From the NCBI GenBank assembly GCA_963743885.1, contig CAVURJ010000001.1:279488-343487 (forward strand): DNA of 64,000 nucleotides, written 5' to 3'. Below the pieces are notes generated by a model. The model was given only the letters and a program-made list of their open reading frames with translations, ran no database searches and had not been told where the DNA came from. This DNA is from Candidatus Moraniibacteriota bacterium (lineage in GTDB: Bacteria > Patescibacteriota > Minisyncoccia > Moranbacterales > UBA1568). Shown one piece after another: positions 1,319 through 43,544 of the stretch. How positions within the stretch are numbered: position 1 is the stretch's first letter; the number at the start of each line of letters is the position of its first letter. The position numbers and the translations under genes were made by a program.

Positions 1319-1381
1319 TAGGCCGATATCTGTAAGAGTTTTGACACGGCGCCGACATATAGATATAATTACCATGGCTTA

Positions 1382-4342: not shown

Positions 4343-4560
4343 TAGAAATAAAATCCGAAATCCGAAATTCTAAACACGAAACAAATCCTAATCTTGAAAT
4401 CCAAAACGAAAAACAAGGGTTTGAAATTTCAGTTTTTTGATTTTGAATTTGTTTAGAAATTAGGAATTAGATATTAGAAATTTCAAAAGCGATTGTTTTC
4501 GATAGGATTGTTTGATATCGATAGTGCAGAAGAAAAGAAAAACGGATATAAAAAGCCAAA
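4343..4560. repeat. AT-rich low-complexity intergenic repeat tract (aaatccgaaat / gattttgaattt k-mers)
   Basis: Shares k-mers with tracts at 15186-15326, 43545-43684, 48595-48692 and 48880-48920. Confidence 0.5.
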
Positions 4561-4563
4561 GAT

Positions 4564-7107
4564 ATGTTGTGGAAGAGATTCGCATCGTATGATGCGGAAA
4601 GCTCGCTTGCTGAGCTCCAATCGTCGGTCGATGGGCTGTCGGAGGAATCCGTCCGGAGTCGGTTTTTGACGTTTGGAAAGAATGAGCTGGGCGGTAAGAA
4701 GTCATTCATCTACGAGGCCTTGCGTCGCCGCTTCAAGTCGTCGTTCCTCTACCTCTTGCTCGCTGCTGCCGTACTGGCGCTCTTTCTTGGGGATCGCCTT
4801 GATGCTCTCTTGATCGCCTTGTTCGTGGCAATCAATATTGGTCTCGAGACGTATCAGGAATATCGCTCTGAGCGATCGGCAGAGCTGCTCAAGAAATATC
4901 TCATCGTACGGGTGCGTGTCAGGCGTGATGGCCGTATGGTGATGACGGAAGGGAAGAACATCGTCCCGGGCGATATTGTGCTCGTGGAACCAGGTGACCG
5001 TCTGCCAGCTGATATCCGTTTTATCAAATCTGACGGCATCGAGGTGGATGAGAGCGTTATGACCGGTGAGTCCGTCGCTGTCGCGAAGACCGCCGATTCG
5101 CCGGACGTGCCACCGACAGAGATGTATGAGGCGGTGAATATCGGCTTTGCGGGGACCATCGTGACAGCGGGGCGTGGCGAGGGAGTGGTTTTTGCGACGG
5201 GCAAGGAGATGGCGCTTGGCGATATTGTTACGCTGACCGAGGGGACCGACCGTGAGACGGTTTTTGAGAAGGGTATGGCCCGGTTTAGCCGCTTTCTGGT
5301 GCGTCTGGTACTCCTGACGCTCACGATTATCTTTCTTGCGAATATCTTCATCAAGGGTGATGGGGCCGATCATATCGAACTCCTCGTCTTCTCGATCGCG
5401 CTTGCGGTCTCGGTGGTACCGGAGGCACTGCCGCTCGTCATGACGGTCTCCTTGTCACGCGGAGCTGTTCGTCTGGCGCAGAAGAAGGTCGTCGTGAAAC
5501 GACTCTCGGCTATTGAGGATCTCGGGAGTATCGAAGTGCTCTGTACCGACAAGACAGGGACGCTGACAGAAAACATGCTTTCCGTCGTTGATGTGCTCGC
5601 GCCCGATCGCGCAGCTTGTCTCACGGCAGCGTTTCAGGCTTCTCTTGAGGTGCCTGAGACGCGTGCTCATCTGCATGACGCTTTTGATTTGGCGCTCTTT
5701 CAGTCCTTGTCGGCCGATGAGCGGATGGTGGCGCTCGAGAAAGAGCGGATTGGGAGTATCCCGTTTGATCCGGAGCGTCGGCGCAACAGTGTGTTTGTCC
5801 AAGGCGGAAATGAACGCGCCATTATCGTGCGCGGAGCACCGGAAGAGATATTCCGTCTCTCGCATGGCATGGACCGGTATACCAGGATGCAGGCGACAGA
5901 ATTCGTAGCTGCTGCTGGGCGAAAGGGGCAGCGTGTCATCGCAGTTGCTTCAAGGCAGCTGCATACCGATGAGAAATGTACGGCGTATAGTGAGCAGAAT
6001 CTTGCGTTTCTCGGATTGATTGCTTTTTCTGATACGCTCAAGAAGACGGCCAAGCGGACCATTGCTGAGGCGCGCTCGCTCAACGTCGCGGTCAAGATTT
6101 TGACCGGTGATAGCCGCGAGGTGGCTGGCTCTGTCGGCTACGCCATCGGGCTGATTGATGACCCGGAGAAGGTGTTCACGGGTAAGGAGCTCGATGAGAT
6201 GCCGTACGAGGAGCGTCGCGACGCGGTTTTTTCTGGCTCTGTCTTTGCTCGTGTCTCGCCGCAGCAGAAGCACGATATCATCAAGCTGCTCCAGGAGCGC
6301 TACGGAGTCGGATTTCTTGGGGAGGGGATCAACGATGCGCCGGCGCTCAAGCTGGCGGATGTCGCTATCGTAGTGGATAGTGCTTCCGATATCGCTCGTG
6401 AGACGGCGGATGTCGTGCTGCTCCAAAAGAGCCTTGAGGCGCTCATCGATGGGATCCGGGAGGGGCGTTCTATCTTTGCCAATATTCTCAAGTATCTCAA
6501 GATCACGCTGACATCCAATTTTGGCAATTTCTATTCCGTCGCGCTCGCATCGCTCCTTCTGCCATTCGTGCCGCTTTTGCCGGTGCAGATTCTTCTCCTC
6601 AATCTTCTTTCGGATTTTCCGATGATTGCTATCGCGACCGACACCGTGGACAAGGCCGAGCTTGACCGACCGAAGAGCTACCAGATGCACACAGTGATCT
6701 ACCTGACGACGCTTTTTGGTGTCGTGAGCTCAGTCTTCGACTTTATGCTCTTTGGATATTTCTACCGCATTTCTCCGGAGGCACTCCAGACGGCTTGGTT
6801 TATGCTTTCTGTTATCACCGAGGTTGTGCTCATCTTTTCGCTTCGCACCAGCTTCGCCTTCTTCAAGGCCCGTCGTCCGTCCTTTGCGCTTATGTTCTTT
6901 TCATTCACGGCGCTCCTCATCGCGGTGGTGCTGCCGTTTACGTCGTTGGGCCAGGTGCTCCACTTTGCGCGCCTCGAGACGAGCTCACTCATCTTTATCG
7001 GCTGTTTGGCTGCCGGCTATTTCATGGTGACTGAGCTGGTCAAGCACATGTACGAGCGGCACCTGCGCCAGTCGCGCCGGGACGTTGCCGATCCGGTTGC
7101 CGCGTGA
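4564..7107 (+). CDS. Cation-transporting P-type ATPase (P2/P3-type, Mg2+/Ca2+-like)
   Basis: DKTGTLT phosphorylation motif, TGDS, GEGINDAPALKLADV hinge motif, multiple TM segments. Confidence 0.85.
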   Translation: MLWKRFASYDAESSLAELQSSVDGLSEESVRSRFLTFGKNELGGKKSFIYEALRRRFKSSFLYLLLAAAVLALFLGDRLDALLIALFVAINIGLETYQEYRSERSAELLKKYLIVRVRVRRDGRMVMTEGKNIVPGDIVLVEPGDRLPADIRFIKSDGIEVDESVMTGESVAVAKTADSPDVPPTEMYEAVNIGFAGTIVTAGRGEGVVFATGKEMALGDIVTLTEGTDRETVFEKGMARFSRFLVRLVLLTLTIIFLANIFIKGDGADHIELLVFSIALAVSVVPEALPLVMTVSLSRGAVRLAQKKVVVKRLSAIEDLGSIEVLCTDKTGTLTENMLSVVDVLAPDRAACLTAAFQASLEVPETRAHLHDAFDLALFQSLSADERMVALEKERIGSIPFDPERRRNSVFVQGGNERAIIVRGAPEEIFRLSHGMDRYTRMQATEFVAAAGRKGQRVIAVASRQLHTDEKCTAYSEQNLAFLGLIAFSDTLKKTAKRTIAEARSLNVAVKILTGDSREVAGSVGYAIGLIDDPEKVFTGKELDEMPYEERRDAVFSGSVFARVSPQQKHDIIKLLQERYGVGFLGEGINDAPALKLADVAIVVDSASDIARETADVVLLQKSLEALIDGIREGRSIFANILKYLKITLTSNFGNFYSVALASLLLPFVPLLPVQILLLNLLSDFPMIAIATDTVDKAELDRPKSYQMHTVIYLTTLFGVVSSVFDFMLFGYFYRISPEALQTAWFMLSVITEVVLIFSLRTSFAFFKARRPSFALMFFSFTALLIAVVLPFTSLGQVLHFARLETSSLIFIGCLAAGYFMVTELVKHMYERHLRQSRRDVADPVAA

Positions 7108-26502: not shown

Positions 26503-26532
26503 TTGACAAAAGCATCGGGGGGGGGTGATAAT
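26503..26532 (+). promoter_or_regulatory. Sigma70-type promoter (TTGACA-18-GATAAT) for the gene at 26561
   Basis: TTGACA at 26503-26508, 18 nt spacer, tGATAAT at 26526-26532. Confidence 0.5.
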
Positions 26533-26560
26533 GGGGGTATAATCCGTAGATTATCGAGAT

Positions 26561-37754: not shown

Positions 37755-38453
37755 ATGTCAGAAGAACTTTCACTCAAGGCGGTAGTCCGCGAGAAGATGA
37801 GCGGCAAGGCGCTCGCCAAGGCCCGTAAGGATGGTCGTATCCCGGCTATTCTCTATGGCCACGGTGTCGAGCCGAAGATGCTTTGGATCGATGCTATCGC
37901 ATTCTCGAAGATGTACGCCAAGGCCGGCGAGTCGAGCATTCTTTCGCTCGCGCTCGAGGGCGGCAAGCCGGTGAACGCGCTCATTCATGATGTCGAGACC
38001 GATGCACTCTCGCACCGCTTCGCGCATGCTGATTTCTTCCAGGTACGTATGGATGAGAAGCTCGAGACGCACGTGCCGTTCGAGTTCGTCGGCGAGGCGC
38101 CGGCTGTCCGTGAGAATGGTGGTATCCTCGTGAAGCCGCTCGAAGAGCTCCATATCAGCTGTCTCCCGAAGGATCTCCCGCACGCGATTTCCGTTGATAT
38201 TTCCGCTCTCGCGACGTTTGATAGCCAGATCCAGGTGAAGGACATCAAGATGCCGCAGGGTGTCGAAGTGCTCGCTGATCCGAATGCGATGGTCGCGTTC
38301 GTCGAGGCGCCGCGCACTGATGCTCAGATGGCTGCACTTGATGAGAAGCCGGAAGGCGATGTCACCAAGGTGGAGGGCGTCGTGAAGGAAGAGGCTCCGG
38401 CTGCCGCTGATGAAAAGGCAGGCAAGCCAGAGAAGAAGGAAGAGAAGAAGTGA
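37755..38453 (+). CDS. rplY: 50S ribosomal protein L25 / general stress protein Ctc
   Basis: GKALAKARKDGRIPAILYGHG and a two-domain Ctc-like length with acidic/K-rich tail. Confidence 0.8.
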   Translation: MSEELSLKAVVREKMSGKALAKARKDGRIPAILYGHGVEPKMLWIDAIAFSKMYAKAGESSILSLALEGGKPVNALIHDVETDALSHRFAHADFFQVRMDEKLETHVPFEFVGEAPAVRENGGILVKPLEELHISCLPKDLPHAISVDISALATFDSQIQVKDIKMPQGVEVLADPNAMVAFVEAPRTDAQMAALDEKPEGDVTKVEGVVKEEAPAAADEKAGKPEKKEEKK

Positions 38454-40762: not shown

Positions 40763-40999
40763 ATGGTTAAGATTCTGCTGGTTGTCTTTGAACTGATCGC
40801 TATAGGGGTAGGTTTCATTTTTGCTTATTCCCAAGTGATCCTTCCGATTGTTCGGAAAATGCCGCTGTTTCCGATGTTCCGTCGCCGGCCTGCAATTGAG
40901 CGGGAGCTCGATGCGGTCAATGAGCAATTGGAAGATAAGGCGCTTCAACGCGAATTGGAGACGAAGCGGAGGCGGCTTGGCAAGACGAGCGGTAACTGA
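40763..40999 (+). CDS. NfeD-like small membrane protein (partner of the SPFH protein)
   Basis: 78 aa, N-terminal TM helices, GAGGG SD. Immediately upstream of an SPFH-domain gene. Confidence 0.5.
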   Translation: MVKILLVVFELIAIGVGFIFAYSQVILPIVRKMPLFPMFRRRPAIERELDAVNEQLEDKALQRELETKRRRLGKTSGN

Positions 41000-41025
41000 A
41001 GTTCACTTAAACAAGGAGAGGTTCC

Positions 41026-42396
41026 ATGAATAGCGATTTTCGTAGTGATAGCAGTGACCGTTTCTCTGGTCTCAAGGATTTGCTTCCTTCGGGGCGTAGA
41101 GTTGCACAGGTTTTCTTCGGGTTCATCTTTGTTGTCACGGTCTTGTTTTCCAAGGGGATGATCGAGACGAAGGAGGCAGACGATATTCTGGGTATCCAAT
41201 CGATTTGGGATGGCAAGATTACCTGGTATACCGGGACCGAAACGTGGGCCTGGCAGAGCTGGGGGAACACGGTGGTGTTCAAGAAGCGTGCCATTTTCAA
41301 CTTCGACACGCCTGACACATCGCCCGAGGGTATAAAAAAAGGCAGGTGTACTGATGGCATCGAAGTGCGCTTCAACGACGGTGGTCACGGCACTATCTGC
41401 GGCTCCGTTCAATTTGAAATGCCGCTGGATGATGAACACCTGACAGCCATCTTCACCAAGTACAAGAGTCAACCAGCCGTGCAGAGCGCACTGATCGAGA
41501 CAGTGACCGGCAAGTCGGTCTATCTAGCCGGCCCTATGATGTCATCCCGGGAATCGTATGCTGAAAAGCGTAACGACCTCCTTTTCTACATCGAGGATCA
41601 AATCCAGAACGGTGTCTACAAGACACGCCAGCGCGAAGAGCACGTGAAGGACTCGATTACTGGTGTGGAAAAGACGGCGACTATTGCCGAAATCGTCATG
41701 GGCAAGGATGGAAAACCGGAACGTCAGGAAGCGGTATCAGTGCTCGGTTCGTTCGGTATCAAGGTTTTTAACTTCGCTATCAAGCGGTTGCCCTACGATG
41801 ACAAGGTCGAGGAGCAGATTCGTGCGCAACAGGAAATTGCAATGGGCGTGCAAACGTCAATTGCGAATGCGAAGAAGGCCGAGCAGCGCGCAATCACTGT
41901 CGCTGAAGAAGGCAAGGCCAATGCCGCGGAAGCCAAGTGGAAGCAGGAAACCATCAAGGCGACCGAGGTCACCAAGGCTGAGCAGGAAAAAGCAGTGGCC
42001 ATTACAGCCGCCGAGAAAGATCGTGACGTCAACAAGCTTCAAAAGGATGCTGCTGAGTACTACAAACAGCAGCAGATACTGAGAGGCGAAGGTGACGCTG
42101 CCTATCGGCGCAAGGTGATGGAGGCTGACGGGGCACTTGAGAAGAAGCTTGCCACATACGAGACTGTCATGGGCAAGTTCGCTGAAGAGTTCGGCAAGCA
42201 AAAGTGGGTGCCCGAAGTTCAGATGGGCGGAGCCGGGGCTTCTGGTGCAAATTCCGCTCAGACAATGATCGACGTTCTGTCGACCAAGGCCCTTCGTGAT
42301 CTCGGGCTCGATATGAAGATGGAGGCTGGTCGTCGTACTGCTGCGGAGGAATCCGCACCAACGTCAACTCAGGCTAAGCCTGCAGCCAAGAAGTAA
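41026..42396 (+). CDS. SPFH/band-7 (flotillin-like) domain protein
   Basis: N-terminal TM, SPFH-like core, long A/E/K coiled-coil C-terminus similar to flotillin/YqiK. Confidence 0.55.
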   Translation: MNSDFRSDSSDRFSGLKDLLPSGRRVAQVFFGFIFVVTVLFSKGMIETKEADDILGIQSIWDGKITWYTGTETWAWQSWGNTVVFKKRAIFNFDTPDTSPEGIKKGRCTDGIEVRFNDGGHGTICGSVQFEMPLDDEHLTAIFTKYKSQPAVQSALIETVTGKSVYLAGPMMSSRESYAEKRNDLLFYIEDQIQNGVYKTRQREEHVKDSITGVEKTATIAEIVMGKDGKPERQEAVSVLGSFGIKVFNFAIKRLPYDDKVEEQIRAQQEIAMGVQTSIANAKKAEQRAITVAEEGKANAAEAKWKQETIKATEVTKAEQEKAVAITAAEKDRDVNKLQKDAAEYYKQQQILRGEGDAAYRRKVMEADGALEKKLATYETVMGKFAEEFGKQKWVPEVQMGGAGASGANSAQTMIDVLSTKALRDLGLDMKMEAGRRTAAEESAPTSTQAKPAAKK

Positions 42397-42572
42397 TTCG
42401 CTTTAGCGGCAACGCCGTGTGAAGCAAGGGGTTCTACCTACGGGTGGGACCTCTTTTTCTTTTTCTATTGATAAGGAGAGGTTTTTTGCTACCCCGTTAG
42501 AAATACGAATGAGTGCGGAGATGGTTGGTTCAAAAAAAGTGCTTAAAATAAGGTATTCTTCGGTATTTTCTG

Positions 42573-42601
42573 TTGACAAATTTCTAACGGGGTGCTATAC
42601 T
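42573..42601 (+). promoter_or_regulatory. Near-consensus sigma70 promoter TTGACA-17-(TG)TATACT
   Basis: TTGACA at 42573-42578, 17 nt spacer with TG at -15/-14, TATACT at 42596-42601. Confidence 0.6.
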
Positions 42602-42607
42602 GGGATT

Positions 42608-42848
42608 TCTCCGATGAAGGAGAAACGGTTTCGGGTTTCTACCGCCAGGGTAAAAGAGGGCACCCCTCCTAGCGCTTTTTTGCTGAAATGTACGAGAGGC
42701 CGGCTTGCTGGAATCTCGTCGGCTCGCGGTAGAAACCCGAGATCGTGAATCTCAAAAAATATACCAGGTCCGAAATGGAAATAGGACGGCGGTCTAATAA
42801 TCCGCAAAAAGCCCGGGTTCCACATGACTCTCCCGGGCCTTTTTTATT
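42608..42848 (+). ncRNA. Candidate small RNA or leaderless 44-aa basic peptide transcript
   Basis: Strong promoter, ATG 3-5 nt after the predicted TSS, long-range pairing gggtttctaccgc (42630) / gcggtagaaaccc (42733), terminator aaaaagcccggg..cccgggcctttttt at 42806-42848. Confidence 0.35.
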
Positions 42849-42908: not shown

Positions 42909-43532
42909 CTAGTGTTTCGTAGAGAGCCAGGTGAGAATCTCATCTTTCGCTTTCGGGAAGATTCCAGAAAGTTGCGCGAGCTCGTCGGAAGAGAGTTTGC
43001 CGAGGACGTAGTCGTGCGAAGGCCCGCCCACACCGCTTCGCGGAGTGCTTCGGGCAGGTTGGCAGGCGCCGAGGACCTCGGTCGGCCCGCCCGCAACGTT
43101 TCGCGTAGCGATTCGGGCAGGCCGGCCGATACCGAGACGGATGCGGAAGAAATCCTGGAGCCCGAGTTTGTCGATGATATCTTGCACGCCGTTGTGTCCG
43201 GCAGCGCGAGACGAGTCCGTCGTGCGGAGCGTGCCTGGGGCGATGTCGAGGTCATCATGGACGATAGTGATGTCGGACGGGGAGAGCTTATAGAAATGCA
43301 TGATCGATTGGACGGGTGTGCCGGATGTGTTCATGAAGGTTTCTGGTTTCATGATGATGACTTTTTCGGAGCCGATCATACCAGAGGAGAGCTCAGCCGA
43401 CAGCTTCTTGTCGGATCTGAACTCTTCGAAGCCGAGCTCCTTGCGGAGGAAGTCGACGAAGAGGAAGCCGGCGTTGTGCCGAGTCATGGAGTACTTTTCC
43501 CCTGGATTACCTAACCCTATAATTAATTTCAT
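42909..43532 (-). CDS. pth: Peptidyl-tRNA hydrolase with a ~33 aa in-frame insertion
   Basis: GLGNPG..Y..TRHNAGF, HDDLD, RLGIGRP...HDYVLGK. The inserted stretch between GIGRP and HDYVLGK is encoded by the tandem GC-rich repeats at 43021-43132. Confidence 0.85.
   Translation of the reverse strand: MKLIIGLGNPGEKYSMTRHNAGFLFVDFLRKELGFEEFRSDKKLSAELSSGMIGSEKVIIMKPETFMNTSGTPVQSIMHFYKLSPSDITIVHDDLDIAPGTLRTTDSSRAAGHNGVQDIIDKLGLQDFFRIRLGIGRPARIATRNVAGGPTEVLGACQPARSTPRSGVGGPSHDYVLGKLSSDELAQLSGIFPKAKDEILTWLSTKH
43021..43132. repeat. Tandem GC-rich repeat (two diverged ~50-60 nt units) lying in frame inside the pth coding sequence
   Basis: ggcccgcccacaccgcttcgcggagtgcttcgggcagg... followed by ggcccgcccgcaacgtttcgcgtagcgattcgggcagg... 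. The second unit is nearly identical to 35374-35412. Confidence 0.7.
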
Positions 43533-43544
43533 ATTTAAATTCAA

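Follow-up and report, generated by a model that had tools for sequence, protein, structure and literature searches.

Gene neighborhood and anatomy of the locus

The window, the whole 64,000-nucleotide stretch of DNA analyzed from a Candidatus Moraniibacteriota contig, carries an SPFH-domain gene at positions 41026-42396 (+), which has its own terminator at 42426-42455, and a pth gene at 42909-43544 (-). The interval between these two genes, flagged in an earlier note on this DNA, holds a promoter, a predicted structured RNA that is convergent with pth, and an intrinsic terminator (Table 1).

The promoter reads TTGACA-17-TATACT with a TG preceding the -10 box, just as had been described, scores 11/12 against the sigma-70 consensus, and is the sole such site between positions 41000 and 44000. 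Its further description as the best fit to the sigma-70 consensus in the whole window did not hold, since a 12/12 site (TTGACA-17-TATAAT) is present at 1341-1369 (+) and five other sites also score 11/12. The 12/12 promoter lies upstream of an ORF starting near 1467. The terminator (hairpin at 42806-42844 followed by a T-run) is indeed strong and bidirectional, with predicted energies of -15.7 kcal/mol on the + strand and -19.3 kcal/mol on the - strand.

The predicted transcript folds with a z score of -6.1, and none of 200 shuffled sequences was as stable. The same was true of its 122-nt core taken separately (-65.2 kcal/mol, z = -6.2, 0/200 shuffles as stable). The long-range complementarity noticed previously in this transcript is real and longer than stated, forming the ∼22-bp P1 helix that closes the three-way junction. 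The local hairpin that was recognized together with it also folds (42606-42612 with 42619-42625; -8.9 kcal/mol, z = -4.4). The family motif of J3/1 starts at the last P3 base, and C42723 and U42724 of this motif pair with G42648 and A42647. The linker that follows the core is missing in all relatives, where the terminator is found ∼10 to 25 nt after the core and the homologous RNAs measure ∼165 to 190 nt. This genome-specific stretch of ∼60 nt had been overlooked, as had the location of the -35 box on a 103-bp insertion.

Table 1. Features of the RNA gene and of its promoter region, in window coordinates
Feature	Position	Strand	Basis or remark
Remnant -35 box of the ancestral promoter, TTGATA	42468-42473	+	the spacer typical of the family, AGGAGAGGTTTTTTGC (42474-42489), comes next
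Target-site duplication GCT, 3 bp	left 42488-42490, right 42594-42596	.	read from the sequence
MITE-like insert, 103 bp	42491-42593	.	perfect 14-bp terminal inverted repeats
-35 box TTGACA in present use	42573-42578	+	carried on the 103-bp insert
-10 box TATACT, ancestral; extended -10 TG at 42593-42594	42596-42601	+	collinear with TAnnnT of all relatives
Predicted sRNA transcript, ∼240 nt	42606-42848	+	start inferred from the -10 box, end from the terminator
5' hairpin UUUCUCC-GAUGAA-GGAGAAA	42606-42625	+	outside the invariant core
Conserved 122-nt core, three-way junction closed by P1	42625-42746	+	fold and covariation
P1 5' strand, pairs with 42723-42746	42625-42648	+	∼22-bp helix
P2 hairpin, 10-nt apical loop ACCCCUCCUA at 42662-42671	42649-42684	+	covariation
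J2/3, junction strand between P2 and P3, with invariant UGAAAUG	42684-42691	+	invariant alignment columns
P3 hairpin, 5 + 4 bp, internal loop, CUUG tetraloop in this genome	42692-42719	+	covariation
J3/1, junction strand between P3 and P1	42720-42725	+	family motif UCG(G/C)CU, 42719-42724
Linker specific to this genome	42747-42805	+	no significant structure, z = -0.4
Bidirectional intrinsic terminator, common to the RNA and pth	42806-42848	.	fold

Relatives of the RNA and evidence for a non-coding gene

Public gene calls place hypothetical proteins antisense to the RNA, one of 76 aa in the window (P0121; 42595-42825, -) and one of 81 aa in a relative (P0122; contig L022, 8001-8246, +). Probing with the 76-aa ORF retrieved the latter contig, our first relative, in which LytR-pth is followed by the RNA sequence on the strand opposite pth. 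Homologues of pth (58 to 69% protein identity) gave loci L023 to L025 and L029 to L038, and one metagenome pattern scan gave L026 to L028, the first two of which originate from Hainich well H43. In all the loci obtained by these three routes, the RNA lies directly downstream of pth and is convergent with it. The antisense ORFs were not kept in the other homologous loci, and P0121 and P0122 are almost certainly spurious. Ten distinct core sequences, which come from independent samples, were available. We left L028 out of the alignment on account of a run of NN and an apparently inverted P1 5' strand, which are probably a scaffolding or assembly artefact. On this metagenome contig (JRYK01178838.1), positions 363-551 contain the 3' two-thirds of the RNA, after the end of an L25-like gene.

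The ancestral gene order consists of LytR-pth, the RNA on the opposite strand, and rplY (L25/Ctc) on the strand of the RNA, with the RNA just downstream of rplY. In the window, rplY is found at 37755-38453, at a distance of ∼4.1 kb from the RNA, and the SPFH operon lies in between. This segment holds a conserved 78-aa gene (40763-40999) besides the SPFH gene. Elsewhere, the corresponding slot holds a DGR reverse transcriptase and bAvd in L023, a TPM phosphatase in L024, and a CHAP-domain gene in L025. Because different genes fill it in these three loci, the slot is a rearrangement hotspot. The best named relatives of the SPFH protein belong to Candidatus Lloydbacteria. We did not find the RNA downstream of the SPFH gene in 18 genome loci or in the closest SPFH relative (82% identical), and the SPFH-RNA linkage is therefore specific to this genome. 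The RNA was also absent, by cmsearch with filters off, from L039, a locus with the same LytR-pth/L25 order and a pth that is 51% identical; there, a 160-nt gap (4546-4707) contains a plain bidirectional terminator. Thus, the RNA family is limited to a subclade of Lloydbacteria-like Parcubacteria (CPR), and L039 marks its phylogenetic boundary.

We then compared the conservation of the core with that of its surroundings. The core is 92% identical in L022 to L024, versus 78% for pth DNA, and 68 to 78% identical in more distant loci, versus 63 to 72% for pth DNA; flanking intergenic DNA cannot be aligned among relatives. RNAalifold predicted the three-way junction from the alignment. In alignment A5, 95% of the cells are paired, compared to 84% in shuffles and 36 to 50% in slid controls. 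Compensatory changes affect 23 of the 42 pairs (60 cells), a value that 0/500 shuffles reached, and all four helices covary. In P1 (helix 1), 8 of the 22 pairs show compensatory changes and 10 never vary, while the figures for P2 (helix 2) and P3 (helices 3 and 4) are 8 compensatory pairs out of 11 and 7 out of 9, respectively, with a P3 sequence that is variable among relatives and a pairing that is kept. The 5' hairpin is common but not universal: its pairing survives through compensatory changes in L022 and L023, L024 has the identical sequence, and L025 lacks the hairpin.

About 45 of the ∼122 core positions are invariant, including a P1 segment and both junction strands, whereas the other helices covary freely. 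In P1, which includes a conserved G-U pair, none of the 10 sequences departs from GGUUUC/GAAAC, and 7 of them contain the longer inner segment GGGUUUCU/AGAAACCC. The P2 loop, A(C/U)CCCUCCUA, is likewise invariant in 10/10 and resembles an anti-Shine-Dalgarno sequence. It is unpaired in both the minimum-free-energy and the consensus folds and is closed by covarying P2 pairs. A covariance model (R1) scored 110 to 145 bits on the + strand of all homologues and 20 to 38 bits on the reverse strand, and the conserved G-U pairs fit the + strand only. According to this model, the RNA is single-copy in each locus, and the window contains no second copy.

The RNA also has the predicted makeup of an independent transcription unit. 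All 10 distinct sequences carry TTGAC(A/G/T)-17-TAnnnT upstream, with a 17-nt spacer that mostly ends in TTTTTTGC, and an A-run/stem/T-run terminator common with pth is present in all homologous loci, pth being the next gene and convergent. Every locus has a terminator after the core and the following gene on the opposite strand, an arrangement that does not fit a riboswitch or cis-acting leader. Together, these comparisons make it close to certain, as judged from sequence, that the region is a functional non-coding RNA gene. They strongly support the view that this small structured RNA represents a genuinely new family, of a familiar kind, whose predicted promoter, core, and terminator are kept as a unit. 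The sRNA was one of several options that the earlier note had offered, and the recurrence of this unit in 10 distinct sequences with compensatory base changes bears it out.

To situate the RNA among known families, we scanned Rfam 15 (4,227 families), as had been proposed. At the gathering threshold, the whole window gave only 4 tRNAs, none of them at the RNA. A search of a 541-nt region with E values of up to 10 returned chance-level matches only, the best one scoring 22.8 bits against a gathering threshold of 35.7 (E = 5.3) and the rest staying well short of their thresholds (e.g., 18 bits where 233 are required). The weak matches to sR035, ctRNA_pGA1, and S16-Flavobacteria were rejected because they align only to the promoter, the terminator, or short hairpins. 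Six homologous loci, searched at E values of up to 1, showed no match at the RNA either. ARAGORN detected no tRNA or tmRNA at the RNA, searches of phage, viral, and plasmid sequences with the region and the family pattern gave no match, and we found no description of the RNA in the literature on CPR structured RNAs. We rejected 6S, SRP, tmRNA, and hammerhead identities, for which Rfam gave no match, and a retron or DGR RNA, as the DGR reverse transcriptase and bAvd adjoin the RNA only in L023.

The other options of the earlier note were a small basic protein and a dual-function RNA. The 44-aa frame exists as stated, from an ATG at 42615 to a TGA at 42747-42749, and L024 has an equivalent ORF. 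The mRNA was said to be leaderless, but the ATG lies 14 nt past the end of the -10 box and a start ∼4 to 8 nt after this box would leave a leader of several nucleotides. The start codon is missing in 8 of 9 relatives, and the frame is interrupted by internal stops in 4 (L029, L030, L031, and L035). In L022 and L023, GATGAA is replaced by GGTCAA and GATTAA, respectively, so that the ATG is lost and the 5' hairpin is kept by the same compensatory changes. More generally, substitutions track base-pairing rather than codon position, and gene callers annotate the antisense 76-aa ORF, whose search matched one relative only, and not the 44-aa frame. We therefore rejected a conserved peptide function on the grounds of start codon loss and internal stops, and a peptide translated from a leaderless or short-leader mRNA, or a dual-function RNA, is very improbable. 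Conservation in relatives had been named as a check on both the region and the peptide: the region is kept and the peptide is not. We give just as little credit to the idea that the core is a divergent housekeeping RNA (5S rRNA, 6S, or SRP RNA), a mobile repeat, or a palindrome acting at the DNA level. The core does form a ∼120-nt three-way junction closed by pairing of its 5' and 3' ends, like 5S rRNA (RF00001), its ancestral site is just downstream of the gene for L25, a 5S rRNA-binding protein, and its long inverted repeat would suit a repeat or palindrome. However, 5S rRNA was rejected because RF00001 gave no match and the RNA is missing in L039 despite an identical L25-pth order, hence not universal. 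In addition, the RNA differs from 5S rRNA in its arm proportions, lacks the loop C and loop E motifs, and has its own promoter and terminator, with a leader and a tail outside the closing stem. The Rfam and ARAGORN results stand against the other housekeeping RNAs as well. As for a mobile repeat, the RNA is single-copy and syntenic, and the G-U pairs and strand asymmetry fit an RNA, not a DNA palindrome.

A MITE-like insert in the promoter

The promoter of the window differs from those of its relatives by a 103-bp insert without any ORF. Its terminal inverted repeats, ACCCCGTTAGAAAT (42491-42504) and ATTTCTAACGGGGT (42580-42593), match at 14 of 14 positions, and this 14-mer occurs in the window in just these two copies (0.19 expected). 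The upstream flank of the insert reads ATTGATAAGGAGAGGTTTTTTGCT. Aligned promoters read ATTGATAAGGA-GAGGTTTTTTGCTATACT in the window and ATTGACAAAGATGCGGTTTTTTGCTATATT in L024, and removal of the 103 bp together with one GCT yields ATTGATAAGGAGAGGTTTTTTGCTATACT, which is collinear with the promoters of 7 relatives, including that of L024. The insert thus resembles a MITE by its terminal inverted repeats, its GCT duplication, and the empty site in relatives. A second copy or a related autonomous element, also typical of MITEs, was not found in the window, 39 loci, viral contigs, or plasmids.

Read from the alignment, a MITE-like element is inserted between the ancestral spacer and the -10 box. 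The resulting promoter is a predicted hybrid, because the TTGACA now in use comes from the insert and the -10 box is ancestral. The last T of the insert re-creates the TG of the extended -10 box. Insertion elements with an outward-facing -35 box can create hybrid promoters. As in those made by IS elements, TTGACA has come to lie 17 bp before a resident -10 box by way of a short element that has terminal inverted repeats and is flanked by a target duplication. Unlike them, the present element measures just 103 bp, has no transposase, and has no second copy where searched, and an already good promoter was replaced rather than a silent gene switched on. The case documents how a small mobile element may rebuild a promoter by giving it a -35 box.

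Candidate modes of action

The RNA resembles several known small RNAs in its general design. Like the orphan motifs of the Weinberg/Breaker type (Rfam "Gene; sRNA"), it is defined by covariation from metagenomes, has a narrow range, and displays conserved junction nucleotides; unlike them, it is not among the 4,227 Rfam 15 families. RsaE/RoxS of Firmicutes and 6C/B11 of Actinobacteria occur where Hfq is dispensable or absent. The RNA shares with them a free-standing gene equipped with a promoter and an intrinsic terminator, a length of ∼100 to 250 nt, and an exposed, conserved C-rich loop, here the P2 loop, which is single-stranded in the predicted folds. There is no sequence or structure homology with these RNAs, as shown by the absence of an Rfam match. 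They consist of two or three simple hairpins, whereas here a single loop is carried by a three-way junction with a 22-bp closing stem, invariance reaches the junction and the closing stem, and the loop sequence CCCUCCUA closely mimics CCUCC, the motif at the 3' end of 16S rRNA. In both families, the C-rich loop or motif pairs with mRNA in or close to the ribosome binding site. B11 employs a cytosine-rich loop against guanine tracks (PMC12395582), and the UCCC motif of RsaE blocks the active ribosomal complex (PMC9266662).

By analogy, the mechanism that we tentatively consider most likely is pairing between the C-rich loop and G-rich sites of mRNAs. The sigma-70-type promoter would drive a ∼240-nt transcript, which would end at the terminator common with pth, and a rigid three-way-junction scaffold would display the C-rich P2 loop. 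The RNA would act in trans, its loop pairing with G-rich Shine-Dalgarno-like stretches (GGAGGG) near the starts of a few mRNAs and blocking their translation without Hfq, as in RsaE and 6C/B11. The best overall explanation, namely an independent gene for a conserved structured sRNA of a family absent from Rfam 15 that would base-pair in trans via its loop, has in our view about an even chance of being right.

We looked for sites complementary to the loop. They are not enriched in the 64-kb window, where 15 sites with at most 2 mismatches were found and 25 were expected, and no conserved G-rich ribosome binding site was found as a target in the retrieved loci. Anecdotal complementary sites of the window are the ribosome binding site of the SPFH gene (41012-41022) and two G-tracts (about 2611-2640 and 26509-26535). 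The SPFH gene carries the Shine-Dalgarno sequence AAGGAGAGG at 41013-41021. The G-tracts (G8 to G9; within 2605-2640 and 26509-26535, +) apparently belong to 5' regions and precede the ORFs at 2645 and 26560. Outside coding sequence and apart from the RNA itself, no predicted partner of the loop is stronger, and the second tract overlaps a promoter-like site. Of 24 gene starts checked for pth, LytR, and L25 (e.g., 43532 and 45265 in the window), about one has a Shine-Dalgarno sequence, which suggests that the lineage uses few such sequences. Targets of this sort for the loop may therefore be few or none.

Simple seed-type sRNAs do not usually show invariance well beyond the loop, as seen here in inner P1, J2/3, and J3/1, and this feature suggests a specific tertiary fold or a protein partner. 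The RNA may accordingly work through a specific tertiary fold: it could belong to a ribonucleoprotein, titrate a protein as a sponge, bind a ligand, or act as a catalyst, and the invariant P2 loop together with the junction strands and the inner part of P1 would then be contact surfaces. The invariance pattern of the core resembles that of riboswitch aptamers, ribozymes, and ribonucleoprotein RNAs more than that of seed-type sRNAs. Because neither a loop target nor an enrichment was found in the window and loci, the conserved neighboring genes are without Shine-Dalgarno sequences in a lineage that seems to use few, and invariance reaches the junction and P1, we consider a protein- or ligand-binding structured RNA nearly as likely as a base-pairing sRNA, and hold it equally tentatively. 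Against it, no conserved neighboring protein gene is specific to the carriers of the RNA, since L039 has the same neighbors without the RNA; Rfam gave no match to a known ribozyme or aptamer family; and no pseudoknot or tertiary covariation was detected, the candidate positions never varying. A more speculative and rather unlikely idea is that, in a lineage which would have mostly abandoned Shine-Dalgarno-led initiation, the RNA is abundant and serves as a global decoy or competitor of the 16S 3' end via its exposed CCCUCCUA loop, selectively silencing the few Shine-Dalgarno mRNAs or sequestering a factor that recognizes the 16S tail, or that the invariant junction is the mark of a new CPR-specific class of ligand-binding or catalytic RNA. 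Position could also matter more than product, if convergent transcription, or transcripts that run past the terminator into the antisense strand of the pth 3' end, tuned pth/LytR and the RNA were secondary. The convergent layout and the terminator common with pth recur in 10/10 sequences, while the upstream neighbor varies (SPFH, L25, DGR reverse transcriptase, TPM phosphatase, or CHAP). Nevertheless, we judge this improbable: the RNA fold and its single-stranded motifs are clearly under selection, which transcriptional interference would not need, strong terminators separate the RNA from pth, and the RNA does not overlap the pth coding sequence.

For public annotation, the RNA gene corrects a spurious hypothetical protein called on the opposite strand. 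Whatever the mode of action of the RNA, an anti-Shine-Dalgarno-like loop is striking in organisms that seemingly use few Shine-Dalgarno sequences. The CPR/Patescibacteria account for much of bacterial diversity and are almost entirely uncultivated, and, to our knowledge, very few regulatory RNAs have been described in them. An RNA family of this group with strong covariation offers a concrete entry point to post-transcriptional regulation, or to a ribonucleoprotein, in these reduced genomes.
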